In this document: positions 10,395 through 29,130 of the stretch, one piece after another
Position numbering within the stretch: position 1 is the stretch's first letter
Layout of the letters: the number at the start of each line of letters is the position of its first letter
Assembly: GCA_049517335.1 (NCBI GenBank)
Contig: JBEKSD010000009.1
Span: 1 to 52,888 of the forward strand
DNA: 52,888 nucleotides
Direction of reading: 5' to 3'
Origin: Candidatus Omnitrophota bacterium
GTDB lineage: Bacteria > Omnitrophota > Gorgyraeia > Gygaellales > Profunditerraquicolaceae
Notes under the pieces: model-generated
Databases searched by the model: none
The model's input: the letters and a program-made list of their open reading frames with translations, nothing else
What the model was told of the DNA's origin: nothing
Position numbers and translations under genes: made by a program

Positions 10395-10400
10395 GTTAAT

Positions 10401-10736: not shown

Positions 10737-10744
10737 GCTTAAAA

Positions 10745-11191: not shown

Positions 11192-11193
11192 AG

Positions 11194-12874: not shown

Positions 12875-12875
12875 T

Positions 12876-13814: not shown

Positions 13815-13815
13815 T

Positions 13816-14659: not shown

Positions 14660-15228
14660 CGGATTTGATATACGGCTTAAAGGACTTCGGCGTTTTTGTG
14701 GCGATGTTCCTCGAGTCGAGTGTTCTGCCTATACCTTCCGAGGTTATTATAATCGGGGCAGGTGCAATAGGGGTCTCTATTTTTTCTATAGTATTTTTTG
14801 GCACTCTGGGCTCTACGCTTGGCGCTATGCTCGGTTATGCTTTAGGTAGGTACGCAGCGATGCCCCTGGTGCTGAAGTTTGGTAAGTTCATACTAATTAA
14901 GCCCCACCATATCTATAAAGCAGAACAGTTTGCCAAGAAACACGGTACACGAAGCGTTTTAATCGGTAGGATCCTGCCGGTAGTCCCTTTTAAGGTATTC
15001 TCAATTGCCGCAGGCATTACGAAAATCCCATTTATACCTTTTGTGTTCTTTACTTTAGCAGGGGTAATACCAAGGATCATTATCTTAGTGGTTTTCGGTA
15101 TATCTATAGTAAAATACACCAAGCCTGTATTCTTGCTTATTGCATGCGCCATTGTTATATTCCTTGGCGTTAAGCTCACGGTTAAACTTTCAGCAAAAAA
15201 CAAGAAACAGCGCTTGACAAAGAAGTAA
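14638..15228 (+). CDS. DedA/VTT family membrane protein
   Basis: FLESSVLPIPSEVII, GAMLGYALGRY, LIGRILPVV. An alternative start at ATG 14656 overlaps the hycI stop. Confidence 0.88.
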   Translation: MYFSPDMTDLIYGLKDFGVFVAMFLESSVLPIPSEVIIIGAGAIGVSIFSIVFFGTLGSTLGAMLGYALGRYAAMPLVLKFGKFILIKPHHIYKAEQFAKKHGTRSVLIGRILPVVPFKVFSIAAGITKIPFIPFVFFTLAGVIPRIIILVVFGISIVKYTKPVFLLIACAIVIFLGVKLTVKLSAKNKKQRLTKK

Positions 15229-15241
15229 TTTGTGTTATATT
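15214..15241 (+). promoter_or_regulatory. sigma70-type promoter of the alternative sigma factor gene
   Basis: TTGACA-16 nt-TATATT with TGn extension. Confidence 0.7.
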
Positions 15242-15256
15242 TATATTGTAACTGGT

Positions 15257-15377
15257 AAGACGAAGATGTCTTCTAAGGCAAGCAGGTCGCTGAAGAAGGC
15301 ATTTTTTTTGCCCGCCTAGGGCGGGAAAGGACTAAGGCGTCCTTAATTTTCAAATACGAAAATTGAGGGCGTTTTTT
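15257..15377 (+). promoter_or_regulatory. Tandem ANTAR-type attenuators in the sigma gene leader
   Basis: AAGAC-GAAGAT-GTCTT overlaps terminator 1 (ATGTCTTCT...AGAAGGCAT plus T-run, 15266-15309). AAGGAC-TAAGGC-GTCCTT overlaps terminator 2 (GCGTCCTTAATTTTC-AAATAC-GAAAATTGAGGGCGT plus T-run, 15337-15377). Confidence 0.72.
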
Positions 15378-15447
15378 ATTATCGACACAGTTAGGGAATT
15401 GACCCTAAACAAGATAAGCATTGAATACGGGAGTGGCCTAGGAAGAA

Positions 15448-15972
15448 ATGTCATACGAACAACTGCTAAAAAAAATATCCCCGACCTTGAAGAGGATAAG
15501 CTATAAGTTAAATAAACAGGTTTCTTTTTGCAGTGCGGACGATTTATACCAGGAAGCCCTGATCCATCTTTGGCTTGATTTTTCTGCCGGTAAGTTAGCG
15601 GATAAGACAGATAGCTATATTTTGCAGGGTTGTTACTTTTATTTAAAGAACCATATACGTAAGAATAACGATAAAGTAAGGCTAATCAGCATTGACCCTA
15701 TGGATAGCGAAAGGGAAGATACGGCTAGGATTGATGAGATACGCTATCTAAGCTCAGCAGACTCTACTTTTGAAGATACCTATTGTAAAATGTTGATTGA
15801 GCAGATTAATAATAATGGTTTGACAATCCGGGAAAAGCAAGTTTTCAATTTTGCTTTAAAAGGGCTTACGGTAAGAGAAATAGGTGGTAGGTTAGGGATA
15901 TCCCATGTCCGGGTAGTTAAACTTCGCCGTTCAATTGCGGAGAAATGCTTAAAACACATTGATAAAATATGA
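15448..15972 (+). CDS. Alternative (ECF-like) sigma70-family RNA polymerase sigma factor
   Basis: 174 aa with only region 2 (SADDLYQEALIHLW) and a region 4 HTH (LTIREKQVF...GLTVREIGGRLGISHVRV). No adjacent anti-sigma gene. Confidence 0.85.
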   Translation: MSYEQLLKKISPTLKRISYKLNKQVSFCSADDLYQEALIHLWLDFSAGKLADKTDSYILQGCYFYLKNHIRKNNDKVRLISIDPMDSEREDTARIDEIRYLSSADSTFEDTYCKMLIEQINNNGLTIREKQVFNFALKGLTVREIGGRLGISHVRVVKLRRSIAEKCLKHIDKI

Positions 15973-16009
15973 AATTAGGGACGAGTAACTAAAGAAACGT
16001 CTCTAATTT
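15972..16009 (+). terminator. Hairpin closing the sigma gene transcript
   Basis: 12-bp stem AAATTAGGGACG / CGTCTCTAATTT directly after the stop codon and directly before promoter motif copy 1. The U-tail is weak. Confidence 0.5.
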
Positions 16010-16012
16010 GTG

Positions 16013-16042
16013 GTTACCAAAAATAAGGTATTTTTACTTGTA
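16013..16042 (+). promoter_or_regulatory. Conserved bipartite promoter motif, copy 1 (GTTACCA-N16-ACTTGTA)
   Basis: GTTACCA-AAAATAAGGTATTTTT-ACTTGTA. Both 7-mers and the spacing are identical in 4 intergenic regions. Confidence 0.85.
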
Positions 16043-16062
16043 CTAATGTAAGAGAAGTTCAA

Positions 16063-16200
16063 ACACATTGCTGTGTAAGCAGTAATACAATGGCGTTCCT
16101 TAAAAGAGTAAGTAAGGAACGCTTTTATTTTTTTAAGTCTTTTTAAGACGCAGACGTCTTTTGTATCCCATTGATGGGGATGAAAAGGCGTCTTTTTTTT
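16063..16200 (+). promoter_or_regulatory. ANTAR dual-hairpin leader with two terminators (permease-PII operon)
   Basis: P1 ACAC-ATTGCT-GTGT. P2 AC-AATGGC-GT overlaps terminator GGCGTTCCTTA...TAAGGAACGCT plus T-rich tail. A third hexaloop, AAGAC-GCAGAC-GTCTT, overlaps a second terminator (16152-16200). Confidence 0.8.
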
Positions 16201-16229
16201 GTGAATTAAATTACGAGGGAGGCTTAAAG

Positions 16230-18098
16230 ATGGCTCAAAATCAGAATGATTCTTCTCTAGTAAAACCAAAACTTGGTTTGTTGGGCGCTGCGATGAACGC
16301 CATGGCCTTGATTGCCCCAGGTGCTTTTTTGTGGATTACCTTTCAGCTTCAAGCTGCTGCTACAGCGCCAAGTGGTGCTTCCGTTGCAAGCGATCTCTGG
16401 GCAGGAATTGCGCTTGCTTTGGCTGTCTGTTTCTTAACCGCATTATCCTATTCGGAACTGGCAAAAATTTATCCTGAGGCAGGTTTTGCCAGCTGCACCT
16501 ATTTTGCGGAGAAGGCCTTCTTGGATAGCCGTAAAGAAAAAGTAAGCGGTCCCACTTCAATGGCCCGCGTAGCCAAACTTACTACCGGGTGGGCTGCCCA
16601 TCTTTTTTATTGGGTCTATCCGGGTGTAATGGTAGCCATGATGGCGACGTTAATCGGCTATATTTATAACCAATTTACAGGCCAGTCATTATCACTAACG
16701 AATTTAACTATAATAGGTGTCATATTTACGGTTGTGACCGGATATATTGCCTACCGGGGGGTGACCGGCTCAACCTTAACGGCGATTTGGATTAATATTA
16801 TCCAGTGGGTCACTCTGGTAATTTTTACCAGCCTGGCTATATGGTACCGTATTGCTAACCCCCAACACGTAACGCAGTGGGCTTTTAGCGGGGGCTTGGA
16901 TATTATTAAGATACATTCCTTACAGGGTATTTTGGTTCAGTCTACTATAGCTATTTTGATCCTCGTCGGTTTTGAAAGCTGCACAGCTTTAGCAGCTGAA
17001 ACAAAAGATCCTAAAACAACAATCCCTAAGGCGATTATCATTTCTCTTATTGTCCAGGGGTTGTTTGCTTATTTGTTTGAGTATTTTGGTGCCGGATTTA
17101 TGCTGAGTGAAAAGTTAGTCAATACGACAGGCACGACTACGCTAACCGGCATGGCTGCTGCTGCGGCATCGGGTGCCCCAATTGGAGACCTTGCCAAGTT
17201 GATTGGAGATTCTCTCTTTCATGGCTTGGGATTCGGTTTAATGATTACTATGGCAATTACCGTTGCTATAGCGGTAATCGGAACAACCTTAAGCTGTATG
17301 AATACGGCTATGCGGGTCAGCGCGGGCATGGCCGAGGATCGGGAACTGCCCTCTTCCTTAAGCTTCATACACACTAAGTATATTACGCCACATGTTTCTC
17401 TTGCTACCTTGATCCTGGTTACTTCAGTAATCGGGGCTATTGGTGTGCGTTCCGTTGTAGGGCTGATTGGTATTACGCTTGCCTCAAACCTGGGGACATT
17501 CATACTCTATGGCCTCACTTGTATATGGACTATTGTGGCGTTTAAGGATAGGAAAGATTTCAATGTTTTAAAACACGGCATCATACCTGCTCTGGGCGTT
17601 ATCGCTAACGTTGTTATGACCATAGGTATTTTGTACCTTTATATTATTGGTAACGCTGATGCCAAGTCAGAAGCAAAAATTTGTTTCATGATCGCCGGAG
17701 GGTGGGCACTGATAAGTATTATATATATTGCCGTGACTACCGTACGCAAGACTTATCGTTTGAAGATAGTATCAGGCATGATCCGGCCAGAGCAGCTTAA
17801 TGTTGTTGTGCAGGCCCTTAAAGAAGATGAATGTATCTTAGGTATGACGGTCACAAAAGTAAAAGGATTCGGCAGGCAAAAAGGCCACCTTGATGGGGAG
17901 CCAGCAAGTGACAAGATTACTTTTATCCCCAAGGTAAGAGTTGATGTTGTAGTAAAGGAATGGGACGTTCCCCAGATTATGGATATTATCAGTGAGGCTG
18001 CGCGTACTGGTAATGTAGGTGACGGTAAGATCTTTGTTACGGATGCTTCAGAAGCGATGCGTATCCGCACAGGAGAAACCGGTGTTTGGGCGATATAG
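16230..18098 (+). CDS. APC-family amino acid/amine permease fused to a C-terminal PII domain
   Basis: ATG 16230 after GGAGG. About 12 TM segments with LVGFESCTALAAETKDPKTTIPKA and MAEDRELP. The C-terminal ~110 aa are PII-like (MIRPEQL, GMTVTKVKGFGRQKG, ARTGNVGDGKIFV, RIRTGE). Confidence 0.9.
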   Translation: MAQNQNDSSLVKPKLGLLGAAMNAMALIAPGAFLWITFQLQAAATAPSGASVASDLWAGIALALAVCFLTALSYSELAKIYPEAGFASCTYFAEKAFLDSRKEKVSGPTSMARVAKLTTGWAAHLFYWVYPGVMVAMMATLIGYIYNQFTGQSLSLTNLTIIGVIFTVVTGYIAYRGVTGSTLTAIWINIIQWVTLVIFTSLAIWYRIANPQHVTQWAFSGGLDIIKIHSLQGILVQSTIAILILVGFESCTALAAETKDPKTTIPKAIIISLIVQGLFAYLFEYFGAGFMLSEKLVNTTGTTTLTGMAAAAASGAPIGDLAKLIGDSLFHGLGFGLMITMAITVAIAVIGTTLSCMNTAMRVSAGMAEDRELPSSLSFIHTKYITPHVSLATLILVTSVIGAIGVRSVVGLIGITLASNLGTFILYGLTCIWTIVAFKDRKDFNVLKHGIIPALGVIANVVMTIGILYLYIIGNADAKSEAKICFMIAGGWALISIIYIAVTTVRKTYRLKIVSGMIRPEQLNVVVQALKEDECILGMTVTKVKGFGRQKGHLDGEPASDKITFIPKVRVDVVVKEWDVPQIMDIISEAARTGNVGDGKIFVTDASEAMRIRTGETGVWAI

Positions 18099-18150
18099 TA
18101 AAGGCCAAAAGTATAACCAGGAGTCATTTAGAGAGGGGGGGGATATTTTA

Positions 18151-19488
18151 ATGAATAAATCCTACAGCAGAAACAAAGACTTTATAGTTAGTGGCGCGGC
18201 AATTTTAATCCTGGGATTTTGTTTGCTTGGAGCCAACATTCCTTCTCTCTTGGCAGACGATGCCAGTAGTGTAGCGACAAAGACAGCCCAGGGGGCAACG
18301 CCGCCAGCTGCTGCATCTGCGCCAGTAACTGAACCGACGCTTAGTCTGTTGATGAGCGCTTTGGATAAGTTAGGGTTGGCTAAACCTTTAAGCAAATTTG
18401 GGATTAACATCTACGGCTATATCGAAGGCGGTTTCATGCATGACTTCTCAGCGCCTCACAAAGGAGGCGCAACTTTCATCGGTTATAACAGTTTCAAAAA
18501 CAGTGGCGTCCTTGACAAGGCTGATTTGAGCATCGAGCGCACGGTCGATGCCACGAAGAAGCAATTTGACATAGGCTTCCACCTGGAAGGTCTCTATGGT
18601 GCGGATGCTGATTTAATTCATTCCAATGGTATGTGGGCTAAGCAAACGGGCCACTATCAAGGGGATCTTCTCCAAGCTTATGTGGATGTAGCCCTTCCTG
18701 ATATGCCGGTAAAAATCCGCGTGGGAAAATGGATTGAGCTGGCCGGTTTCGAGCAGTACAGTGCTAATATCTACGGGGCTTTTGGTGATCCGAGCAAGGC
18801 GCTTTATTCTTATAGTTATCAGTTTATGTATGCTGAACCTGGTACGCAGACAGGCGCTTTTGCTACCTATATATTGAATCCCCAATGGACGTTTGACGCT
18901 GGTCTTACGCGGGGTTGGAACCAATCAACGCGTGACTCCAACAGTACTTCGGACTTCTTGGGCCGCGTGACCTTTACGCCTAGTGATAAGACTAGCATTA
19001 TTTTTGTAATGACGGAAGGGCCAGAATATCCTACGGGCGTCGGAAGCAATCTGCCTCCCGGCGACAACAGCCACTGGTGGACCGCTTTGGATTTGGTTGC
19101 CACCCAGAAGATCAATGACAAATTAAACCTCGGTATGGGTCTTGACTATGTTGAGACTCCACAAATTCCCAATTTAAAGGACGGGGCCAAGCAGTGGGGC
19201 GGTTTGGCTGGTTACGCCAGCTACGCCTTTGATCCGCATTTCACACTGAATACCAGGCTGGAGTGGTATAAAGACGCTGCCGATGGTTTCTCTACTGGTG
19301 CACCCGTAAGTGCTAACTACTATGAAACCACGGTGGGAGTGGCTATCAAGCCGTTTCCAAAAGATAAGATCTTCTCTAACTTGCTGTTCCGGCCAGAAGT
19401 TCGCTATGACTGCTCTAACCGCTCGGTCTTTAACAGCGATGAACGTAACCAGTGGACATTCAGCGTAGATACTCTCTTCACCTTCTAG
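18151..19488 (+). CDS. Outer-membrane beta-barrel porin (BBP2/OmpL-like)
   Basis: Signal peptide, IYGYIEGG, LLQAYVDV, RVGKW, RLEWYKD, RPEVRYD and a C-terminal Phe. Confidence 0.8.
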   Translation: MNKSYSRNKDFIVSGAAILILGFCLLGANIPSLLADDASSVATKTAQGATPPAAASAPVTEPTLSLLMSALDKLGLAKPLSKFGINIYGYIEGGFMHDFSAPHKGGATFIGYNSFKNSGVLDKADLSIERTVDATKKQFDIGFHLEGLYGADADLIHSNGMWAKQTGHYQGDLLQAYVDVALPDMPVKIRVGKWIELAGFEQYSANIYGAFGDPSKALYSYSYQFMYAEPGTQTGAFATYILNPQWTFDAGLTRGWNQSTRDSNSTSDFLGRVTFTPSDKTSIIFVMTEGPEYPTGVGSNLPPGDNSHWWTALDLVATQKINDKLNLGMGLDYVETPQIPNLKDGAKQWGGLAGYASYAFDPHFTLNTRLEWYKDAADGFSTGAPVSANYYETTVGVAIKPFPKDKIFSNLLFRPEVRYDCSNRSVFNSDERNQWTFSVDTLFTF

Positions 19489-19555
19489 TAGGATGCTGAA
19501 AGTAACTTTCACTGTAAAAGGAATTTACGTATTCAAATAAAGAGTGGAGGATGTT

Positions 19556-19894
19556 ATGAAAAAAATAGAAGCGGTAATACGTCCGACAAAACTTGGAGAT
19601 GCGCTTGATGCCTTAAATAAAGCGGGACACCCGGGTGTTATGATTACCGAGATTGAGGGGCACGGAAAACAAAGAGGCATAGAGCAGGAGTTTCGCGGCA
19701 AAACATATAAGACAGAACTGCTCACGAAAGCTAAAATTGAGATCGTGGTCAATAACGCGGATGTTGAGAAAATAGTTCAAGTCATACGCGAGGCTGCTTT
19801 AACGGGAAAGGTAGGAGATGGCAAGATATTCGTTTATCCTATCGATGATGTTGTCAGGATCCGCACTGCCGAACATGGTGATATTGCGATATAA
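19556..19894 (+). CDS. glnB: PII nitrogen regulatory protein (Tyr51-containing)
   Basis: MKKIEAVIRP, GHGKQRG...FRGKTY51, TGKVGDGKIFV, RIRT. ATG 19556 follows GGAGG. Confidence 0.9.
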   Translation: MKKIEAVIRPTKLGDALDALNKAGHPGVMITEIEGHGKQRGIEQEFRGKTYKTELLTKAKIEIVVNNADVEKIVQVIREAALTGKVGDGKIFVYPIDDVVRIRTAEHGDIAI

Positions 19895-19911
19895 GGGACC
19901 GTAGGTTAATT

Positions 19912-20091
19912 ATGATAGATAATGAATTAATTAGTAAACTTTTACAATTTAAAGAGGCTGAAGGATATACTCTGCACGATTTATCCAAAAAGCTAGACCT
20001 TCAGGTTACCACTATCGAAAGATGGTTTAAAACTGGGCGCATTAATAAGATTTATGCGCGTATGGTAAAAGAGAAATTACATTTGGATTAG
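19912..20091 (+). CDS. Small XRE/Cro-like helix-turn-helix protein (59 aa, absent from ORF track)
   Basis: Hand translation: MIDNELISKLLQFKEAEGYTLHDLSKKLDLQVTTIERWFKTGRINKIYARMVKEKLHLD. GYTLHDLSKKLDLQVTTIERW fits an XRE HTH pattern. Confidence 0.75.
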   Translation: MIDNELISKLLQFKEAEGYTLHDLSKKLDLQVTTIERWFKTGRINKIYARMVKEKLHLD

Positions 20092-20207
20092 GTAATTTAA
20101 AACAAGATTGAAGGGGGGGATTTTTTGTATTCTTATTTGCACAATTGTCTAATCAAAAGTAGGGATGACCTATTATTAACAGAAACAAAGAAAAGGAGGA
20201 AGTAGAA

Positions 20208-21437
20208 ATGATTAACACAGGTGATACGGCGTGGGTTTTGATCTCATCGGCTCTTGTGCTGCTGATGACCCCGGGATTGGCTTTTTTCTACGGAGGTATG
20301 GTCAGGCGTAAGAATATGCTTAGTATCCTTATGCAGTGTTTCATTATTATGTGTGTTTTAAGCGTGCAATGGGTACTTTTCGGTTACAGCCTTTCTTTTG
20401 CCCCTAGTAAAGGCTTTTGGGGCGGATTAAGCTGGTTAGGTTTGAATGGCGTAGGCTTAGAACCTTACGCGGATTACGCTGCGACAATTCCTCATCAGGC
20501 GTTTATGATTTTTCAGGCAATGTTCGCGATTATTACGCCAGCCCTGATTATCGGCGCATTTGCCGAAAGGATGAAGTTTTCGGCGTTTTTGATTTTTACT
20601 TTACTTTGGGCGACATTTGTTTATGACCCATTATGCCACTGGGTTTGGGGTGTTGGCGGGTTCTTGCGTAATTTGGGTGTTTTGGATTTTGCCGGAGGCA
20701 CAGTTGTCCATATTAATGCCGGGATTGCGGCGTTGGTTACTGCTATAATTATCGGACGCAGGAAGAATTTAGATGAAAATATTCCCGCTCCGCATAATTT
20801 ACCTTTTATCGTTCTAGGTACAGGGTTGCTTTGGTTTGGCTGGTTTGGTTTTAATGCCGGCAGTGCCCTAGCTGCCAATGGTTTAGCTGTTAACGCATTT
20901 GTCGTTACCAATACCGCTGCAGCTGCCGCTGGCTTAAGCTGGGCGCTTATTGAGTGGTCGCGTAACGGAAAACCAACGATGTTCGGCGTGGCATCAGGCG
21001 CTGTTGCCGGGCTTGTTGCTATTACTCCCGCAGCAGGTTTTGTAAATGTAACCTCAGCGCTCATTATCGGATTTCTAGTTAGTATATTCTGTTTTATTGC
21101 CGTAAGTATAATAAAGCCAAAATTCGGCTATGATGATTCCTTGGATGCTTTTGGCGTGCACTGTATCGGTGGGATCTGGGGTGCGCTCGCTACCGGTTTG
21201 TTTGCTTCTAAGGCAGTGAACGCAGCCGGAGCGGATGGTTTATTTTTCGGTAACCCGAAACAGCTATTAATTCAAGGGGCAGCAGTATTGGTAACTATTC
21301 TTTACACCGGAGTGGTTACTTTCTTAATCTACAAGCTTGTCGATATCTTTGTAGGGGTAAGGGTGAACGAAAAAGAGGAGCTTATGGGTTTGGATCTTAC
21401 CCAACACCACGAAAGGGCTTACACGGTATTGGAATAA
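20208..21437 (+). CDS. amtB: Ammonium transporter Amt (copy 1)
   Basis: LMTPGLAFFYGG, FQAMFAIIT, DFAGGTVVH, WFGWFGFNAGS, DDSLDAFGVH (twin His intact). Confidence 0.96.
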   Translation: MINTGDTAWVLISSALVLLMTPGLAFFYGGMVRRKNMLSILMQCFIIMCVLSVQWVLFGYSLSFAPSKGFWGGLSWLGLNGVGLEPYADYAATIPHQAFMIFQAMFAIITPALIIGAFAERMKFSAFLIFTLLWATFVYDPLCHWVWGVGGFLRNLGVLDFAGGTVVHINAGIAALVTAIIIGRRKNLDENIPAPHNLPFIVLGTGLLWFGWFGFNAGSALAANGLAVNAFVVTNTAAAAAGLSWALIEWSRNGKPTMFGVASGAVAGLVAITPAAGFVNVTSALIIGFLVSIFCFIAVSIIKPKFGYDDSLDAFGVHCIGGIWGALATGLFASKAVNAAGADGLFFGNPKQLLIQGAAVLVTILYTGVVTFLIYKLVDIFVGVRVNEKEELMGLDLTQHHERAYTVLE

Positions 21438-21445
21438 TTCATACA

Positions 21446-21479
21446 TTGACTTACTCACACTAGCGTGTTCGTAAGTCAA
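21446..21479 (+). repeat. Intergenic palindrome between amtB1 and glnK1
   Basis: TTGACTTAC-TC-ACAC-TAGC-GTGT-TC-GTAAGTCAA. Absent from the paralogous amtB2-glnK2 spacer. Confidence 0.6.
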
Positions 21480-21499
21480 GTGTTCATTAAGGAGGAAAA

Positions 21500-21841
21500 A
21501 TGAAGTTAATCATTGCAATAATCCAGCCTTACAAGTTAGAGGAAGTAAAGGAGGAACTTTATAAGGCCGATGTAAATCTTATTACGGTTAGCGAAGTATT
21601 GGGCCACGGCCGACAGAAGGGGATAACAGAATTCTACCGTGGAGCCAAGGAAACAGGCAATCTTTTGCGAAAAATCCGTCTTGAGATTGCAGTAAACGAG
21701 GATTTTGTTGAACCGACTATAAAAGCCATAGTTAAAGGAGCAAAAACGGGACAGACAGGTGACGGCAAGATTTTTGTTCTAGACATGCATGAATGCGTAC
21801 GCATTAGGACAGGTGAGAAAGGGCACTTGGCTATAGGATAA
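21500..21841 (+). CDS. glnK: PII protein GlnK (copy 1)
   Basis: PII motifs GHGRQKG, YRG, TGDGKIFV, RIRTGE. Adjacent to amtB. Confidence 0.93.
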   Translation: MKLIIAIIQPYKLEEVKEELYKADVNLITVSEVLGHGRQKGITEFYRGAKETGNLLRKIRLEIAVNEDFVEPTIKAIVKGAKTGQTGDGKIFVLDMHECVRIRTGEKGHLAIG

Positions 21842-21848
21842 TTATTGA

Positions 21849-21880
21849 CAGGGGTAAGCCGAAATTTGGGCTCGCCCCTG
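21849..21880 (+). terminator. GC-rich hairpin after glnK1
   Basis: CAGGGGTAAGCC / GGCTCGCCCCTG stem with a poor U-tail. Confidence 0.45.
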
Positions 21881-21965
21881 CTTGTAAAAAACCATTCCCT
21901 CAAATACGGTTGCTCTTTCTTAAAAACTGGTACAACTTATATGAGCGGGTCAATATAAAGTCATC

Positions 21966-22028
21966 TTGACAAAGCGTTATCAATAGTGTACACTTTTATT
22001 GTAAGTAAGAATGTAAGGAAGTAAGAAT
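21966..22028 (+). promoter_or_regulatory. sigma70 promoter and probable operator repeats of the TA module
   Basis: TTGACA-17 nt-TACACT (21966-21994), followed by GTAAG direct repeats at 22001, 22005, 22013 and 22021. Confidence 0.65.
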
Positions 22029-22081
22029 ACATTGTTTTATCATATAGGCAGGTGTTTACTGTTGTGAAAGGAGTAATTAAA

Positions 22082-22345
22082 ATGACTGTTCTTGAAACCG
22101 CTAAAATTACCTCAAAAGGCCAGGTTACTATACCCAACCGCATAAGGAAGCTTCTGCGTGTAGAGACAGGCGCCTCTTTAGCCTTTGGTTTAAGCAAGGA
22201 AGGAGTGGTTTTGCTTCCTTGCAAAGTCACCGCAGAATCGCCTTATACTGCTAGTGAATGGGCGAAAATTGAAAAGTTAGCCTCAGCCAAAGGCAAGGCC
22301 TACAAAAGCGCCAAAAGAGCCAAAAAGCATATTGAGGCATTATGA
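22082..22345 (+). CDS. AbrB/MazE/SpoVT-family antitoxin
   Basis: AKITSKGQVTIPNRIRKLL motif. ATG 22082 follows AAAGGAG. Confidence 0.88.
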   Translation: MTVLETAKITSKGQVTIPNRIRKLLRVETGASLAFGLSKEGVVLLPCKVTAESPYTASEWAKIEKLASAKGKAYKSAKRAKKHIEAL

Positions 22346-22620
22346 GATTTGAATTTAAATCTTCCTTTGACCGTTCGCTCAAGAGTTTTTATGGCAGAGA
22401 AAAAGAAGGGATAAAGAAAGTTGCTCTCCAAGCGATAGATATACTCTCTCAGGACCGGATACTCCATAAAAGGATCGGTCTGAAACGTCTTAAAGATGAT
22501 TTCTGGGAGATAAGACACGGTCTTAAGGCAAGGATTCTATTCCGCTGGGAAGGAGATTTAGTGGAATTTATTCTTGCTGGTGACCACAATGATATTAAGC
22601 GTTATCTGAAGAATATTTGA
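22342..22620 (+). CDS. RelE/ParE-superfamily toxin-like protein
   Basis: 92 aa, basic, ATGA-coupled to the antitoxin. F.KSSFDRSLK...LKRLKDDFWEIR...RILF...AGDHNDI pattern. Confidence 0.72.
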   Translation: MRFEFKSSFDRSLKSFYGREKEGIKKVALQAIDILSQDRILHKRIGLKRLKDDFWEIRHGLKARILFRWEGDLVEFILAGDHNDIKRYLKNI

Positions 22621-22678
22621 ACTTAATATTATCTTCAGATGCTGTTTCTAGAAGTCTCCCCTTGTGGAATATTTCTGG

Positions 22679-22708
22679 GTTACCAAAAATACCATATTTT
22701 TACTTGTA
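22679..22708 (+). promoter_or_regulatory. Conserved bipartite promoter motif, copy 2
   Basis: GTTACCA-AAAATACCATATTTTT-ACTTGTA upstream of amtB2. Confidence 0.85.
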
Positions 22709-22721
22709 TATATAATTGTAG

Positions 22722-22810
22722 TATAAACACGTTGTCGTGTTTATATGATTAGTAGCCAATGCAGGCGTCCAATACAGCTATAGTTTGTAGTTGTTTATGG
22801 GCGCTTTTTT
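22722..22810 (+). promoter_or_regulatory. ANTAR dual-hairpin leader plus terminator (amtB2-glnK2)
   Basis: P1 TATAAACAC-GTTGTC-GTGTTTATA. P2 GCC-AATGCA-GGC (alternative register AT-GCAGGC-GT) overlaps terminator GGCGTCCA...TGGGCGCT plus T-run. Confidence 0.8.
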
Positions 22811-22882
22811 ATTAACCGAGTTTTGGGATATTTTTTTAACCATTATTTACACAATTGATGAGCCAGTTGTGAAAGAGGAGGG

Positions 22883-24115
22883 ATGATGATTAATCCTGCT
22901 GATACAGTATTTGTTTTATTTTCAACAGCCTTTGTTATGCTGATGACCCCAGGGTTGGCTTTTTTCTATGGTGGTATGGTACGTAGAAAGAATATCTTAA
23001 GTGTTTTAATGCAGTGTTTTATACTCCTATGTTTACTTACTGTATACTGGATGCTTTTTGGGTACAGCCTTTGTTTTGCTCCCTCAAAAGGTTTTTGGGG
23101 TGGTTTAGCATGGTTTGGTTTAAATGGCGTGGGCCTAGAGCCCTATGTAGGATATTCCGCAACTATACCGCATCAGGCTTTTATGATATTTCAAGCGATG
23201 TTTGCAATTATCACACCGGCCCTGATTATCGGCGCATTTGCCGAAAGGATGAAGTTTTCGGCATTCTTGGTTTTTAGCCTTCTTTGGGCGACTTTTGTTT
23301 ATGCCCCGCTATGCCACTGGGTGTGGGGTATCGGTGGGTTCTTGCGTAATTTGGGTGTGCTTGATTTTGCCGGAGGTATTGTCGTGCATACCTCAGCCGG
23401 TATCGCGGCCCTTGCTGTTGCCTTAATCATCGGTAGGAGGAAAAATCTCGAGCATAATGTTCCTGCCCCGCATAATTTGCCCTTTGTAGTGTTAGGAACA
23501 TCCTTACTTTGGTTTGGCTGGTTTGGTTTTAATGCCGGTAGTGCCCTGGCTGCCAATGCTTTAGCAATTAGTGCTTTTGTGACTACGAATGCCGCTGCGG
23601 CATGCGCAGGTTTAACCTGGGCGGTTTTAGAGTGGATTCGTAATGGCAAGCCAACGGTTTTCGGAGTGGTAACAGGTTCTATCGCCGGTCTTGCGACGGT
23701 TACGCCTGCGTCGGGTTTTGTAAGCCCTATCTCGGGGTTAATAATAGGGATGCTCGCAAGCATAGTTTGTTTTATTGCCGTGGCGGTAGTTAAGCCTAAA
23801 TTCGGCTATGATGATTCACTCGATGCTTTTGGCGTGCATGGCGTAGGGGGAATATTAGGTACGCTGGCTACCGGTTTGTTTGCTTCGAAACTAATAAATC
23901 CTCAAGGTGCCGATGGGCTATTTTTCGGAAATCCCAAGCAGTTTCTAATTCAGTTAGCCGCTGTTTTGGTGGCCACAGTTTATACTTTTGCAGTTACCTA
24001 CGGGTTATACAAATTCGTGGATATATTTTTCAGAATCCGTGTTACGGAAAAAGAGGAACTTATGGGTCTAGATCTTACCCAGCACCGCGAAAGAGCTTAT
24101 ACAGTATTGGAATAA
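22883..24115 (+). CDS. amtB: Ammonium transporter Amt (copy 2)
   Basis: Same Amt motifs (DFAGGIVVH, DAFGVH). Close paralog of copy 1. Confidence 0.96.
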   Translation: MMINPADTVFVLFSTAFVMLMTPGLAFFYGGMVRRKNILSVLMQCFILLCLLTVYWMLFGYSLCFAPSKGFWGGLAWFGLNGVGLEPYVGYSATIPHQAFMIFQAMFAIITPALIIGAFAERMKFSAFLVFSLLWATFVYAPLCHWVWGIGGFLRNLGVLDFAGGIVVHTSAGIAALAVALIIGRRKNLEHNVPAPHNLPFVVLGTSLLWFGWFGFNAGSALAANALAISAFVTTNAAAACAGLTWAVLEWIRNGKPTVFGVVTGSIAGLATVTPASGFVSPISGLIIGMLASIVCFIAVAVVKPKFGYDDSLDAFGVHGVGGILGTLATGLFASKLINPQGADGLFFGNPKQFLIQLAAVLVATVYTFAVTYGLYKFVDIFFRIRVTEKEELMGLDLTQHRERAYTVLE

Positions 24116-24142
24116 TAAAAGTTTCATTAACAAGGGGGTTTT

Positions 24143-24484
24143 ATGAAGTTAATCATTGCAATAATCCAGCCTTACAAGTTAGAGGAAGTAAAGGAGGAAC
24201 TTTATAAGGTCGATGTAAATCTTATTACGGTTAGCGAAGTATTGGGCCACGGCCGGCAAAAAGGGATAACCGAATTCTACCGCGGAGCCAAGGAAACAGG
24301 TAATCTTTTGCGAAAAATCCGTCTTGAGATTGCAGTAAACGAGGATTTTGTTGAACCGACTATAAAAGCGATAATTAAAGGAGCAAAAACAGGCCAAACC
24401 GGAGACGGCAAGATTTTCGTATTGGACCTGAAGGAATGCGTGCGTATCAGAACCGAAGAGCGCGGTTCTCTTGCCATAGGCTAG
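24143..24484 (+). CDS. glnK: PII protein GlnK (copy 2)
   Basis: Near-identical to 21500-21841 and adjacent to amtB2. Confidence 0.93.
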   Translation: MKLIIAIIQPYKLEEVKEELYKVDVNLITVSEVLGHGRQKGITEFYRGAKETGNLLRKIRLEIAVNEDFVEPTIKAIIKGAKTGQTGDGKIFVLDLKECVRIRTEERGSLAIG

Positions 24485-24560
24485 ACGTCTTCAGGCCTGA
24501 GGGGGATCCTGCGTTTCACTTAAGATGCATTTGCCGATTAATAAAAATATGAAAAATAGA

Positions 24561-24590
24561 GTTACCAAAAACAGGGGAATTTTACTTGTA
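24561..24590 (+). promoter_or_regulatory. Conserved bipartite promoter motif, copy 3
   Basis: GTTACCA-AAAACAGGGGAATTTT-ACTTGTA upstream of glnA. Confidence 0.85.
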
Positions 24591-24609
24591 TGTTTAAGAG
24601 AAGAAGTTT

Positions 24610-24694
24610 GCGTACAAGGTCGCGCTAATTTAAGGAAGAAGAACAGGGGCGTTCATTCAGACGGTAAAAATTGTTAAAATGAACGCTTTTTTTT
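24610..24694 (+). promoter_or_regulatory. ANTAR-type leader plus terminator (glnA)
   Basis: Weak P1 (C-AAGGTC-G). P2 GAAC-AGGGGC-GTTC overlaps terminator GGCGTTCATT...AATGAACGCT plus T-run. Confidence 0.75.
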
Positions 24695-24711
24695 AATTAA
24701 AGGAGGACAAG

Positions 24712-26211
24712 ATGCCTAAGAATAAAGTAGCGGAAGTGAAAACCAGCAATCCTTTGAAAAACGGCTCTTTTGACGAGAAAGCGGCGAGAGATGTCCTGAA
24801 AATGGTCAAGGACAAAGACATCCAGATTATTGATCTGAAATTCAATGATCTTCCCGGATTATGGCAGCATTTTTCTATCCCTGCCAGAGAATTATTAGAA
24901 ATGGATGATATTACCCGCTCTATCTGGGTAGATGGTATCGGGTTTGACGGTTCATCCATCCGTGGTTTTCAAAAGATACAAGAGTCGGATATGATTTTGA
25001 TTCCAGATCCATCCAGCGCAATAGTTGATCCTATATGTGAAGTGCCTACTCTAAGTTTAATCTGCGATATTTATGATCCTCTGACCCGTAAAGCTTATTC
25101 TAGAGACCCGCGTTATATCGCCAAAAAAGCGGAAAAATACCTAAAGGATTCCGGTATTGCTGATTCGGTTTACTTTGGCCCTGAAGCAGAGTTTTTTATT
25201 TTTAACAGCATACGCTTTGACCAAACCGAAAATTCTGGTTATTATTTTATTGATTCTCAAGAAGCGGACTGGAATACCGGAAGGGATGAAAATCCTAACC
25301 TCGGATACAAAATACGTTTTAAAGAAGGCTATTTCCCGGTTCCTCCCCATGATTCAATTCAGGATTTAAGAAGCAGAATAATCCTGAAGATGATAGAATC
25401 TGGGATCAATGTAGAAGTGCATCATCATGAAGTGGCCACTGCCGGTCAGTGTGAAATCGATATGAAGTTTGACAAGCTTACAAAAATGGGCGATAACCTG
25501 CTTCTTTACAAGTACATCATCAAGAATATGGCTAAGAAAGCAGGGATGGTCGCAACCTTTATGCCCAAGCCGCTCTTTGCGGATAACGGCTCAGGTATGC
25601 ATTGCCATCAGAGCCTTTGGAAGAACGGCGTGAACCTTTTCTATGATAAAAATGGGTACGCCCTTATTTCCCAGACTGCGAAATACTACATCGGCGGGTT
25701 ATTAAAACACGCCAATAGCCTTATGGCTTTTTGCGCGCCGACGACTAACTCTTATAAGAGACTGGTTCCTGGGTATGAAGCCCCGGTTAACCTGGTTTAT
25801 TCTGCCAGAAACCGTTCCGCAGCAGTAAGAATCCCGATGTATTCGGATAGCCCGAAATCAAAAAGAATTGAATTCCGTCCCCCGGATCCGGCTTGTAACG
25901 GTTATCTGGCATTCAGCGCCATGCTTATGGCCGGTCTCGACGGCATACAGAACAAAATTAATCCCGGTGAACCATTGGATGTTGATTTATTTGACCTGAG
26001 TGAAGAAGAAATGAGTAAGATAGCCACAGTTCCTTCTTCTTTACGCCGGGCAGTTGACGCCTTGGAAGCAGACCACGATTACCTCTTAAAAGGCGGAGTA
26101 TTTACCAAAGACGTAATCGACATCTGGCTTGAGTATAAGCGTAAAAAAGAGATAGACCCGGTAAGGATGCGCCCGCATCCCTATGAGTTTTATCTTTACT
26201 TTGACATTTAA
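24712..26211 (+). CDS. glnA: Glutamine synthetase type I (beta)
   Basis: [38 protein letters not shown]...[33 protein letters not shown]. The GSI-beta insertion is present. Confidence 0.97.
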
Positions 26212-26225
26212 GGCCTTAAAGTAAT

Positions 26226-26262
26226 AAAGCAGGGGGCTTTCTTTGAAAATGCCCCCTGCTTT
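26226..26262 (+). terminator. Intrinsic terminator after glnA
   Basis: AAAGCAGGGGGC...GCCCCCTGCTTT perfect GC-rich stem. Confidence 0.8.
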
Positions 26263-26364
26263 CGGAATTCCGTTGATTAATTTTTAGGCAATTAGGTATT
26301 AAAAATACGGCTTTATTTTCCTCTTAGTTTGTAGTAAAATAGAGCAACTAAAACAGGAGGATCA

Positions 26365-28560
26365 ATGAGCATCAGGCAAGAACTTTTATCAAGGATCAAA
26401 GGTGTGGAATTAACCAAGATTAATACCCCTAAGAAAGTTTCTACGTATTTCGGAAAGAACACCTTTAGTATGGAGACTATGCAGAAGCATATCTCCAAGC
26501 CTACCTTTAAAGCGTTTAAGGACTGGCTCAATGAAGGCAAGACCATATCCTTAGAGCAGGCCAATGAAATCGCCGGCGCCATGAAGGATTGGGCGATTGC
26601 CAAAGGCGCAACTTATTATACGCACTGGTTTCAGCCTATGACCGGGCTTACGGCCGAGAAACACGATAGCTTCATTTCCATTACTGGCCCGGGCAAGGTA
26701 ATTGAAAAATTTTCCGGGAATAAACTTATTCAGGGTGAGCCTGACGCTTCAAGTTTTCCTTCCGGAGGCATCCGGGCAACCTTTGAAGCCCGCGGTTATA
26801 CTGCCTGGGATCCGTCAAGCCCGGCATTTATCATTGAAAGCGCCTTAGGTAAGACCCTCTGTATCCCCACTATTTTCATCTCCTATCACGGAGAAGCGCT
26901 GGACAAGAAATTACCGCTTCTGCGTTCTGATGAGGCCTTAAACAGAGCGGCAGTAAATCTCCTAAAATTATTCGGACATAAGGATATAAAAAAGATATTC
27001 TCAACCTGCGGCCCGGAACAAGAATACTTTTTGATTGATAAGAATTACTACAACCTGCGCCAGGACCTGCTTTTGGCTGGACGCACCCTGGTGGGCGCAC
27101 CTTCGCCAAAGGGCCAGCAACTGGAAGACCAGTATTTCGGCACCATCAAAGAGCGCGTGGTTAACTTTATGTTTGATGTGGCTGAGGAAGCGTACAAATT
27201 GGCTATTCCTCTGATGACCCGCCATAATGAAGTCGCGCCGCATCAATACGAATTCGCGCCCATTTTTGAAGACTCGAATATCGCCGCAGACCACAACCAA
27301 CTGCTTATGGAATTGATGAAGAAGGTGGCCTTAAAGCATAACCTGGTTTGCCTTCTGCATGAGAAACCTTTCGCCGGGATCAACGGTAGCGGCAAACATT
27401 TAAACTGGTCGCTTGCCGATGATTTGGGGAATAACCTTTTAAATCCGGGCGAAACACCGGAAGATAATTTACAATTTCTGGCTATGCTAGCTGCTGTATT
27501 AAGAGCGGTTTATCTGCACGCCGACCTTTTAAGGGCAAGCGTGGCCATGGCCGGCAACGAGCACCGCTTAGGCGCGAACGAAGCCCCGCCTGCGATTATC
27601 AGTGTCTTCTTAGGCGATCAGTTATCCAAAATACTGGACATGATTGAGAAAGGTATCAAAGGCAAGGTTTCCAAGCGCGACATCATTGATTTAGGAATTG
27701 GCCATCTTCCTAAATTCAATAAGGACATGACCGACAGGAACCGTACTTCGCCTTTTGCCTTTACGGGAAATAAATTCGAATTCCGCGCAGTCGGCTCATC
27801 CCAAAATATATCCACGCCTATAACCATGCTTAATACTATTATCGCCGACAGCCTTGATTATGTCGCCGGAGAGATTAAGAAAGAGCAGCAGGCGAATAAG
27901 GGTTTAAGCTCGGCGGTAATGAAGGTCATCGCAAAACTTGTCAAGGAAACCAAGGATATCCGCTTCGAAGGCAATAACTACGCCGAGGAGTGGCTTAAAG
28001 AGGCGAAAAAGAGGGACCTGCCTAATGTCGCTTCTACCTATGAGGCCCTCGAGGCGTTGATTGTAAAAGAGAATATCGCCCTTTTTGAAAAATATAAGAT
28101 ATTTTCTAAGGAAGAGATTGTTGCGCGCTACCATATCTGGATTCACCTTTATAACCTCACTCTTGAAATTGAGGCGAATACCTTAAATGAAATGGTTAAT
28201 GCCAGCGTGGTCCCTGCCGGGTTAAAGTACCAGAAACTTCTTTCGGATAACCTTGCGGTGTTGACCGAGCTTAAAAAGGGCGCCGGGGTTAAACTGGATA
28301 CGGCTGTGGTCAATGATTTAAAAGAGCATTTGGCCGATGTCTCCAGCAAGATTTATTATGTTCGCCGCAATACCAAAGTAATGCTCAATCTTATGGATAA
28401 AGCCAAGAGCGTAAGTGACGAAAAGCGGGCCAAGGTATATTACGAAGAACTAAGACCTTTAATGGAGCATATCCGCAGGCATGTCGATGATTTAGAATGC
28501 GTAGTCTCGGATGAAACTTGGGATCTTCCCAAATACAGGGAGATGCTCTTTGTGAAATAA
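26365..28560 (+). CDS. glnN: Glutamine synthetase type III
   Basis: 731 aa; THWFQPMTGLTAEKHDSF, GEPDASSFPSGG.RATFEARGYTAWD, HNEVAPHQYE, HEKPFAGINGSGKH, DRNRTSPFAFTGNKFEFR. Confidence 0.95.
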   Translation: MSIRQELLSRIKGVELTKINTPKKVSTYFGKNTFSMETMQKHISKPTFKAFKDWLNEGKTISLEQANEIAGAMKDWAIAKGATYYTHWFQPMTGLTAEKHDSFISITGPGKVIEKFSGNKLIQGEPDASSFPSGGIRATFEARGYTAWDPSSPAFIIESALGKTLCIPTIFISYHGEALDKKLPLLRSDEALNRAAVNLLKLFGHKDIKKIFSTCGPEQEYFLIDKNYYNLRQDLLLAGRTLVGAPSPKGQQLEDQYFGTIKERVVNFMFDVAEEAYKLAIPLMTRHNEVAPHQYEFAPIFEDSNIAADHNQLLMELMKKVALKHNLVCLLHEKPFAGINGSGKHLNWSLADDLGNNLLNPGETPEDNLQFLAMLAAVLRAVYLHADLLRASVAMAGNEHRLGANEAPPAIISVFLGDQLSKILDMIEKGIKGKVSKRDIIDLGIGHLPKFNKDMTDRNRTSPFAFTGNKFEFRAVGSSQNISTPITMLNTIIADSLDYVAGEIKKEQQANKGLSSAVMKVIAKLVKETKDIRFEGNNYAEEWLKEAKKRDLPNVASTYEALEALIVKENIALFEKYKIFSKEEIVARYHIWIHLYNLTLEIEANTLNEMVNASVVPAGLKYQKLLSDNLAVLTELKKGAGVKLDTAVVNDLKEHLADVSSKIYYVRRNTKVMLNLMDKAKSVSDEKRAKVYYEELRPLMEHIRRHVDDLECVVSDETWDLPKYREMLFVK

Positions 28561-28583
28561 AGTTTCGGATGCGGGAATGGTTA

Positions 28584-28613
28584 GTTACCATAACCTCGTA
28601 TTTTTTACTTGTA
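28584..28613 (+). promoter_or_regulatory. Conserved bipartite promoter motif, copy 4
   Basis: GTTACCA-TAACCTCGTATTTTTT-ACTTGTA upstream of the Fis-like/gltB/gltD unit. Confidence 0.85.
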
Positions 28614-28623
28614 TAATAAATAA

Positions 28624-28716
28624 TATAGATACAGCGTTGTATCTATAAAACTAAATAGAAAGAACAAAGGCGTTCATTCCGAAGGAATTTTTCTGCTTTG
28701 GGATGAACGTTTTTTT
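28624..28716 (+). promoter_or_regulatory. ANTAR dual-hairpin leader plus terminator (gltBD operon)
   Basis: P1 TATAGATAC-AGCGTT-GTATCTATA. P2 GAAC-AAAGGC-GTTC overlaps terminator GCGTTCATTCCGAAG...CTTTGGGATGAACGT plus T-run. Both loops are A1/G4. Confidence 0.85.
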
Positions 28717-28749
28717 AACTGATTTGCATGATTAAATTCTAGGCAGAAT

Positions 28750-29130
28750 ATGATTACCATAGTTATCGCGGATGACGAAACAAAAATAAGAGAGGCTTTA
28801 AGCAAGGTGCTTAAAGAAGAGGGCTATGCTTTGGCCGACTCGCTTGGGAACGGTAATGTAATCCGCCTGGTGAAGAAGGACTGTATAAGGGATCTTGCTT
28901 TTATAAAAGATAAGGTTGTGGAGTTTGGAGATTCCTTGATAAATGAGAAAAAAGGCGTATTATATAAATCTATTTTAGAGGCAATTGAGAAACCCCTTAT
29001 TGAGCATATCTTAGAGCGTACTGAAGGCAACCAGTTGAAAGCCGCGCGCATTTTAGGCATTAACCGCAACACTATGCGCGCAAAAATCAAGAAGTTTGGG
29101 ATAAATCCGGAAAAATGGAAGATAAGTTAA
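28750..29130 (+). CDS. Fis/NtrC-type HTH protein with a vestigial receiver N-terminus
   Basis: N-terminus [23 protein letters not shown] (receiver beta1-alpha1). C-terminus [40 protein letters not shown] (Fis HTH). No AAA+ domain. Confidence 0.85.

Follow-up and report, generated by a model that had tools for sequence, protein, structure and literature searches.

GTTACCA-N16-ACTTGTA as a probable promoter of nitrogen-assimilation operons in Omnitrophota and the ECF-type sigma factor that may read it

This study concerns a stretch of DNA of 52,888 nucleotides (contig C9 of its assembly, referred to as the window) from a member of the Omnitrophota, a widespread and uncultivated phylum whose regulation is, to our knowledge, essentially undescribed. 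Its subject is a bipartite motif, GTTACCA-N16-ACTTGTA, which stands in front of operons for ammonium transport, glutamine synthetase (GS) and glutamate synthase. We conclude that the motif is in all likelihood a promoter, and that a sigma factor of the extracytoplasmic function (ECF) type, encoded just upstream of the first motif-led operon, is its probable reader, an assignment to which we give a probability of roughly three in four. The promoter class very probably serves a nitrogen-assimilation regulon together with the kdp potassium pump. These conclusions are drawn from comparison of sequences and predicted structures.

The source assembly comprises 1.45 Mb in 31 contigs, with 41.9% G+C and an estimated completeness of 92%. 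The window contains four exact matches to the motif, all on the + strand (Table 1), while none was obtained in 100 dinucleotide-preserving shuffles of the window. A preliminary description of this DNA had reported these four copies, with both 7-mers invariant and a spacer of exactly 16 nt, all of them intergenic and in the same orientation, and with the first hairpin of the leader beginning about 10-25 nt past the motif; each of these statements was confirmed in the window, where the copies are co-oriented with the downstream genes. The count of four stands for the window, whereas the genome holds five exact copies. The fifth (contig C1:7705-7734, + strand; locus L001 2706-2735) lies before genes unrelated to nitrogen, 42 nt 5' of a cyclic di-AMP (c-di-AMP) riboswitch (RF00379, 70 bits; L001 2777-2955) that is followed by kdpA, kdpB and kdpC. 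Spacers of 12-15 and 17-21 nt gave no match anywhere in this genome, and the genome-wide scan returned zero sites at one mismatch; the five sites at two mismatches all lack the T-rich end of the spacer. The bias of the spacer that had been described, towards A at its start and towards T at its end, also holds in a profile of 48 exact sites from relatives. The sequence TATAAT overlaps copy 4, as previously noted, and likewise the fifth copy, and is absent from the other copies. No inverted or direct repeat relates the two boxes to each other. A palindrome within the spacer, AAAAT...ATTTT, is present in the window copies and was rejected as a binding element because it is not conserved among relatives.

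Conservation was assessed in a close set of 41 genomes, consisting of this one, 24 from other genera of the same family and 16 from other families of the order. The exact motif was found in 19 of the 24 other genera of the family and in two of the 16 genomes from the other families, and the motif read backwards, which served as a control, had no match in any of the 41. Among 48 distinct exact sites, both boxes and their spacing are fixed and the spacer is variable except for its T-rich end, giving the consensus aaaa...gGTTACCAaaa......ttTtTTTACTTGTAta..Tg.a.g. The context of 40 distinct exact sites was assigned by blastx against the proteins of the window. Of these sites, 38 lie 5' of genes for type III GS (GS-III), type I GS (GS-I), amtB/PII, a protein with a Fis-type helix-turn-helix (HTH) together with gltB, a permease-PII fusion, PII or kdpA, and the remaining two, one of which is at a contig end, had no blastx match to the window proteins. 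The enrichment at nitrogen genes that had been expected of a genome-wide scan is thus borne out, as 38 of 40 sites are at nitrogen-assimilation or kdp genes. In the order's other families GTTACCA-N16-ACTT is kept and the last three bases vary: the second box reads ACTTAAT at both sites of genome G027, and ACTTATA at both sites of G031 and at both of G039. These variant sites are again located 5' of amtB, GS or gltB. One copy with a 14-nt spacer was found in G015 (L069 247-274, contig C48), directly 3' of the sigma gene. This copy precedes a sequence resembling a c-di-AMP riboswitch.

With regard to the protein of 174 residues encoded at 15448-15972, several lines of evidence identify it as a member of the sigma70 family of the ECF type, for which binding to core RNA polymerase is predicted. 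Its residues 3-170 match the NCBIfam model TIGR02937 (sigma70-ECF superfamily) with 53.6 bits, the cut-off being 42.9. Of the sigma regions, the protein has 2 and 4 and lacks 1.1 and 3. In Pfam, a GerE HTH is the sole hit at E <= 0.001; Sigma70_r2 reaches 19 bits, which is under its cut-off, and precomputed annotations of orthologues contain Sigma70_r2, r4 and r4_2 hits. No specific curated subfamily reached its cut-off in the NCBIfam scan. In an alignment of 22 orthologues the invariant residues include D32, L33, Q35 and W42 of the N-terminal domain as well as G150, S152 and H153 of the C-terminal HTH, and a profile built from this alignment hits SigB and FliA in the PDB at their region 4. 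In the AlphaFold2 model (mean predicted local distance difference test score 81.8), a disordered linker at residues 78-100 connects two helical domains. The best PDB matches of the model in Foldseek are SigL, SigB, SigH and sigmaE, which are ECF and group-3 sigma factors, each with a probability of 1.00; over the whole chain the TM-score is low, at about 0.35, presumably because the domains can orient freely. The family is large, with 1169 clusters at E <= 1e-5, and its named members are annotated as sigma-70 family factors of Omnitrophica/Omnitrophota.

The gene for this protein is closely linked to the motif. Among 25 sigma loci of close relatives, the exact motif lies within about 90 nt 3' of the sigma stop codon in 15, often at a distance of 0-10 nt, and a near-variant follows the sigma gene in four more, namely in G001 (one mismatch) and in G026, G027 and G031 (variant -10 box); no motif was found after the sigma gene in G038, G037, G030, G039 and G022. 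The same adjacency recurs in other classes of the phylum (G088 and G222). Co-occurrence points in the same direction: when the motif is accepted only 5' of nitrogen genes, 24 of the 41 genomes have both sigma and motif, one has the sigma only, three have the motif only and 13 have neither, these being raw counts over related genomes and not independent events. The group with neither includes the 96% complete G021 and the 94% complete G024. In a sample of 251 genomes from the whole phylum, the pattern GTTACCA-N14-TTACTT was found in 52 genomes and the sigma profile, at E <= 1e-15, in 53. Both occur in 46 genomes, the sigma alone in seven, the motif alone in six and neither in 192, and states are mixed within at least eight families. 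The six motif-only genomes mostly contain one isolated hit, which is near the rate of the reversed control (about 14 of 251 genomes).

A further indication comes from two subtypes of the sigma factor that differ in region 2, subtype A containing DKTDSYILQGCYFHLKNYIR and subtype B a sequence like GINESYVIKGCEFHIQNFLR. The motif copy beside the sigma gene ends in ACTTGTA in 20 of 20 cases for subtype A. For subtype B only ACTT is kept and the bases after it vary, GTA being present in two of 11 cases. Neither GTTACCA nor the region-4 helix G(I/V)SHV changes between the subtypes. This covariation fits a reading of the -10 box by region 2 and of the -35 box by region 4.

The position of the motif relative to the leaders could be compared with that of ordinary promoters in relatives from which both sigma and motif are missing. 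In G021, the porin-amtB-PII-GS-III operon opens with TTGACA-N17-TATACT, followed by hairpins and terminators. In G035, the GS operon opens with TTGACA-N17-TAAACT-tt-TAATGTAAG-gcacAGAGAAgtgc, while motif-bearing leaders typically read ACTTGTA-g-TAATGTAAG-acacA..G..gtgt. As the leader of G035 opens with the same TAATGTAAG box, the boxes of the motif fall at the -35 and -10 positions, to within 1-2 bases. All that is left of the sigma gene in the genome G024 is a short in-frame piece, covering its most conserved segment, directly 5' of amtB-PII-gltB (L118, C14); a scan of this genome found no intact sigma, motif, Fis-type HTH or GAF-ANTAR match, which suggests that the regulatory layer was lost by deletion. 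At many loci the motif touches or overlaps the sigma stop codon, leaving no room for a promoter further upstream, and the fifth copy is followed by a c-di-AMP riboswitch in place of an ANTAR-type leader, which identifies the motif as a module separate from the leader RNA. The preliminary description had interpreted the motif as the -35/-10 pair of an alternative sigma factor and, on the grounds of proximity, assigned it tentatively to the sigma encoded at 15448. The former proposal is supported by the fixed spacing, the genomic context and the position in G021 and G035, and the latter by the adjacency, the co-occurrence, the sigma-less relatives and the poorer tracking of the motif by rival regulators.

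The motif does not resemble the promoters of the better known sigma factors. A scan of positions 15100-29200 for the sigma70 consensus found no + strand site of at least 9/12 at the four motif regions, and the best site in that interval was TTGACA-N16-TATATT at 15214, 5' of the sigma gene. Past ACTTGTA, good conservation is confined to a T five positions further along, and this T fits TAnnnT in neither register. The TA of ACTTGTA was also considered as the start of a sigma70 -10 and rejected, as the T position at -7 is not conserved and the distance to the -35 would be 21 nt. With respect to sigma54, the earlier statement that the motif does not match holds: the GG-N10-GC core is missing, and a search of this 92% complete genome did not find the DNA-binding domain of sigma54. 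Within the close set of 41, nine or ten genomes do encode sigma54, and the motif occurs in some of these. The motif system is therefore not simply a substitute for sigma54, and the idea of a simple replacement was dropped. The statement that the motif matches neither NtcA nor TnrA/GlnR sites holds likewise, the boxes being neither dyad-symmetric nor direct repeats.

Past each window copy of the motif come a small hairpin and, after it, a strong intrinsic terminator whose 5' arm starts with GGCGTYC; the predicted folds of hairpin P1 plus terminator have z-scores of -3.6 to -5.9. The usual form of the first hairpin among relatives is gcac-ATTGTA-gtgc or acac-ATWGAW-gtgt, and that of the second, which overlaps the terminator, is gaac-AGAGGC-gttc. 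ANTAR proteins are described in PMC3369931 as targeting a pair of hexaloop hairpins with A at the first and G at the fourth loop position, of which the second hairpin lies at the 5' base of the terminator. The leaders that follow the motif conform to this dual-hexaloop definition, and the genome encodes a protein with an ANTAR domain, whose GAF domain is closest to those of PtsP and NifA. When two hairpins with stems of at least 3 bp and a hexaloop A..G.. were strictly required, 34 of 57 leaders qualified against a shuffle mean of 5 of 57. Several of those that do not qualify have G at loop position 1, and some loops have G or U there. Rfam at gathering thresholds gave no match in the window and did not capture the ANTAR-type leaders. 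A crude genome-wide regular expression for further leaders of this type produced 27 matches, mostly noise, and was set aside.

The sigma gene itself is preceded by a promoter of the sigma70 type and by a leader with hairpin and terminator (Table 1). Of 23 relatives, 15 have a promoter here that agrees with the consensus at 10-12 of 12 positions, and inspection of the sequences of those 15 shows a comparable leader of hairpin and terminator. This arrangement suggests that synthesis of the sigma is itself gated by antitermination. In L060 (G012), the -10 half of the motif, TTTACTTGTA, lies directly past the sigma70 -10 of the sigma gene without a -35 half.

Three other explanations of the motif were weighed. 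It is unlikely that the motif is an activator site that recruits sigma70 to a weak -10, with either the Fis/NtrC-type HTH protein encoded at 28750 or the 174-residue protein, taken as a LuxR/GerE-type regulator, as the activator. A dimeric HTH activator needs the dyad symmetry or direct repeat that the motif lacks, even if the overlap of TATAAT with copy 4 and the fifth copy and the agreement of TTACCA with TTGACA at four of six positions could be explained in this way. The bases past ACTTGTA are not conserved as a sigma70 -10, the T at -7 being missing, and the sigma70 promoters of this lineage are near-consensus, both before the sigma gene and in G021 and G035. The Fis-type HTH gene is a member of the regulon and its product resembles the C-terminus of NtrC; nevertheless, it tracks the motif poorly, as it occurs in 28 of the 41 genomes, including the motif-less G021, G025, G028, G035 and G040, and searches of the motif-bearing G030 (94% complete) and G037 (89%) did not find it. 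As for the 174-residue protein, the GerE hit noted above would suit an activator, whereas the full sigma region 2 with its four invariant residues and the ECF-like fold would not. The GAF-ANTAR gene, present in 34 of the 41 genomes, nine of them motif-less, also tracks the motif worse than the sigma gene does.

That the motif is a promoter read by another sigma factor, with the protein encoded at 15448 merely co-inherited, is decidedly unlikely. The genome has three further Sigma70_r2 matches, among which a group 2-like protein of 271 residues (contig C2) and an ECF factor of at least 162 residues (contig C21) would be the candidates. The former, by our own reading of its sequence, contains the regions 1.2 to 4 that characterise sigma70-like specificity, and the latter occurs in just 18 of the 41 genomes and was not found in G010, G015, G026 and G031, which are well assembled and motif-bearing. 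The assignment of sigma to motif is purely correlative, and the phylum-wide sample has its discordant genomes on both sides; those with the motif only are, however, mostly the isolated hits near the control rate, and loss of the 15448-type sigma is accompanied by loss of the motif and replacement by sigma70 promoters. It is very improbable that the motif is a repressor operator or a transcribed part of the leader, with the true promoters elsewhere. The motif is always close to a structured leader, and a transcription start at the motif is a prediction from sequence, which would suit such an arrangement. Yet the four intergenic regions contain no other candidate promoter, the motif is combined with two unrelated types of leader (ANTAR and c-di-AMP riboswitch), a sigma70 promoter occupies its position in sigma-less genomes, and where it abuts or overlaps the sigma stop codon an upstream promoter would have no space.

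Several observations weigh against a promoter read by the 15448 sigma. A search for RNA sequencing runs with positions 15200-25199 listed none. The positional equivalence with sigma70 promoters rests on two sigma-less genomes, G021 and G035. Three genomes of the close set have the motif without the sigma (G002, G007 and G032, 64-75% complete), G038 has the sigma without the motif, and seven sigma-bearing genomes of the phylum sample have no match to the pattern. As co-occurrence and synteny are inherited together, the counts overstate independence, and a nitrogen island moved or lost as a block would yield the same table. The covariation of the subtypes may represent a single evolutionary split, and 20 of the loci compared were picked because the adjacency had already been observed in them. 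Some sigma70 activity at motif sites is possible, given the four bases of six that TTACCA shares with TTGACA and the TATAAT in copies 4 and 5. Finally, ECF sigma factors typically, although not obligatorily, have a co-encoded anti-sigma factor and are autoregulated from their own promoter. No anti-sigma gene was found beside the sigma gene, its neighbours being a DedA/VTT protein (NadE in relatives) and nitrogen genes, and the sigma gene is not autoregulated, as a sigma70-type promoter and a terminator leader stand upstream of it in place of the motif. The lack of both features is unusual among ECF sigma factors.

Taking the motif as a promoter read by the 15448 sigma, we propose the following mechanism. 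For RNA polymerase carrying the 174-residue sigma, GTTACCA would be the -35 element and (TTT)ACTTGTA the -10 element. Initiation would take place a few bases past the motif, near the conserved TGTAAG box, and the transcript would then enter an ANTAR-type leader with two hexaloop hairpins, the second of which overlaps an intrinsic terminator. Read-through of these leaders probably needs the GAF-ANTAR protein, presumably bound to the leader. Under nitrogen limitation, which is the presumed signal, the GAF-ANTAR protein would bind the dual hairpins and block termination in the sigma leader, if the direction of its effect is as we suppose. The sigma would accumulate and direct RNA polymerase to GTTACCA-N16-ACTTGTA, and the transcript of each nitrogen operon would need the GAF-ANTAR protein again at its own terminator. 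The kdp copy would be under c-di-AMP control in place of an ANTAR leader. Taken together, the arrangement of promoters and leaders suggests a cascade in which the GAF-ANTAR protein controls the sigma and the sigma controls the regulon.

Table 1 Features of the window relevant to the motif, its candidate reader and the associated leaders and operons
Feature	Position	Strand	Description
GAF-ANTAR protein, 240 aa, proposed antiterminator for all leaders listed	4101..4823	+	sole ANTAR match in the genome
Sigma70-type promoter of the sigma gene	15214..15241	+	TTGACA-N16-TATATT, 11 of 12
Leader of the sigma gene	15257..15381	+	hexaloop hairpin aagacGAAGATgtctt, then hairpin ggacTAAGGCgtcc overlapping a strong intrinsic terminator
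ECF-type sigma factor, 174 aa, proposed reader of the motif	15448..15972	+	profile, fold, alignment
Putative promoter, copy 1	16013..16042	+	exact motif; 41 nt past the sigma stop codon; would drive permease-PII, porin, PII, small HTH open reading frame, amtB1, PII
Leader, copy 1	16043..16208	+	two tandem hairpin/terminator attenuators; likely start codon 16230
Target operon 1	16161..21841	+	amino-acid permease-PII fusion, BBP2 porin, PII, amtB1, PII
Putative promoter, copy 2	22679..22708	+	exact motif; 5' of amtB2-PII
Leader, copy 2	22709..22812	+	hairpin P1, hairpin P2 gccAATGCAggc, terminator
Target operon 2	22883..24484	+	amtB2-PII
Putative promoter, copy 3	24561..24590	+	exact motif; 5' of GS-I, with GS-III further downstream
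Leader, copy 3	24591..24698	+	hairpin P2 gaacAGGGGCgttc overlapping the terminator
Target operon 3	24712..28560	+	glutamine synthetase type I, then type III
Putative promoter, copy 4	28584..28613	+	exact motif; 5' of the Fis-type HTH gene, gltB and gltD
Leader, copy 4	28614..28712	+	hairpin P1 atacAGCGTTgtat, hairpin P2 gaacAAAGGCgttc overlapping the terminator
Fis/NtrC-type HTH_8 protein, 126 aa, regulon member, rival binder	28750..29130	+	short receiver-like N-terminus
Target operon 4 (with the gene at 28750)	29115..35117	+	glutamate synthase large and small subunits

The gene order in the window, as assigned with Pfam and NCBIfam, is an Lrp-type regulator, an aminotransferase, the GAF-ANTAR protein, a hydrogenase/Mrp-like cluster, a DedA/VTT protein, the sigma factor and the four motif-led operons. 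The cluster between the GAF-ANTAR and sigma genes (4951-14659) comprises 10 genes for a membrane-bound [NiFe] hydrogenase related to Mrp and complex I, together with a maturation protease. In operon 1, the permease-PII fusion (Pfam AA_permease and P-II, the PII domain being C-terminal) occupies 16230-18098, its likely start codon being at 16230 and not the TTG at 16161. A small open reading frame of about 59 codons (19913-20092), HTH-like by eye, lies between the PII gene and amtB1, and is probably what had previously been referred to as an XRE protein. Between two of the nitrogen operons, at 22052-22620, an open reading frame for a MazE-like antitoxin (97 residues) overlaps one of 92 residues with no Pfam hit. 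They have a TTGACA-N17-TACACT site of their own at 21966-21994 and are probably a toxin-antitoxin pair.

The protein of 126 residues encoded before gltB exhibits a receiver-like stretch in its first 30 residues (a weak match to NtrX) and an HTH_8 domain, and has no AAA+ domain. Many relatives keep only the HTH part of about 80 residues, and the protein may be a relic of an NtrC-type activator. At eight of 22 GS-III loci (L083, L084, L086, L088, L090, L091, L098 and L101), a box resembling an extended -10, TG-n-TAAAAT/TATAAT, lies 25-45 nt before the start codon, 3' of the attenuator terminator; the window reads TAGTAAAAT at the corresponding position, around 26325-26340. This box could be a second, constitutive promoter.

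ECF (group 4) regulons, such as those of sigmaE in Escherichia coli and sigmaW in Bacillus subtilis, have bipartite promoters. The system described here is similar in its small sigma factor with regions 2 and 4, its non-palindromic -35/-10 pair at a distance of about 16-17 nt, its compact regulon and its predicted fold. It differs in that it would serve central nitrogen assimilation rather than envelope or stress functions, and in that the sigma gene has a sigma70 promoter and a terminator leader in place of an adjoining anti-sigma gene and autoregulation. Most ECF promoters carry AAC and CGT cores, which are not seen in GTTACCA and ACTTGTA. In Proteobacteria, sigma54 and NtrC provide a dedicated alternative sigma promoter before glnA, amtB-glnK and gltB. 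The likeness lies in a dedicated, here putative, alternative sigma promoter at the same types of genes and in the presence of an NtrC-like HTH protein in the cluster, whereas the GG-N10-GC core, a detectable sigma54 and, in the NtrC-like protein, the AAA+ domain are missing here. Besides sigma54/NtrC, the designs of global nitrogen control include NtcA, GlnR/TnrA, actinobacterial GlnR, AmtR and NrpR.

The likeness to ANTAR systems concerns the leaders and not GTTACCA-N16-ACTTGTA. EutV with eut, NasR with nasF and AmiR with amiE share the two hexaloop hairpins with A1 and G4, of which the second lies at the 5' base of the terminator (PMC3369931). Compared with EutV, NasR and AmiR as described there, the protein encoded here has a GAF sensor in place of a receiver or NIT domain, and its proposed targets are ammonium-assimilation genes and a sigma gene. 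The closest described logic is that of Geobacter sulfurreducens, in which an initiation regulator system (GnfL/GnfM) and an ANTAR antiterminator system (GnfK/GnfR) act in a cascade on the same nitrogen genes, the antiterminator working at leader terminators of a subset of them (PMC2995071). Both designs are two-layered, combining control of initiation with antitermination at leader terminators of nitrogen genes. In Geobacter each layer is a two-component system, and the genes for the antiterminator are activated by the regulator of initiation (PMC2995071), whereas here a sigma factor would initiate, a one-component GAF-ANTAR protein would antiterminate, and the order appears to be reversed, with a leader gating the sigma gene.

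The regulon of an ECF-type sigma and attenuation by ANTAR proteins are both of known kinds, and it is their combination that is at issue here. In the literature covered, with most subscription journals and supplements outside its scope, nothing was found on the motif, on a sigma/ANTAR nitrogen system of Omnitrophota or on an ECF sigma dedicated to ammonium assimilation. What appears to be new is an ECF-type sigma for ammonium assimilation, the promoter consensus, the lack of an anti-sigma factor and of autoregulation, and the control by a terminator leader.

On a broader view, which we consider to have about an even chance of being correct, nitrogen assimilation in Omnitrophota is run by a self-contained, transferable module consisting of the GAF-ANTAR protein, an ECF sigma without an anti-sigma factor and private promoters, forming a feed-forward AND gate. 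Its targets would be amtB, glnA of types I and III, gltBD, the PII genes and kdp, all except kdp being gated twice by the antiterminator. Such a module would do the job that sigma54/NtrC, NtcA or GlnR/TnrA does elsewhere, and the NtrC-like stub could be a relic of the former arrangement.

If the interpretation of the motif as a promoter read by the 15448 sigma is correct, it would add a further design of nitrogen control, in which an ECF-type sigma for ammonium assimilation is itself switched by antitermination. It would also yield a precise consensus for the promoter, a defined set of target genes and a candidate sigma factor, all of which could be put to the test in vitro or in E. coli with no need to grow the bacterium itself, and the motif could be used as an annotation marker for nitrogen regulons in metagenomes of Omnitrophota. 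The copy before kdp would tie potassium uptake to nitrogen status at the level of the promoter, with gating by a different RNA switch.

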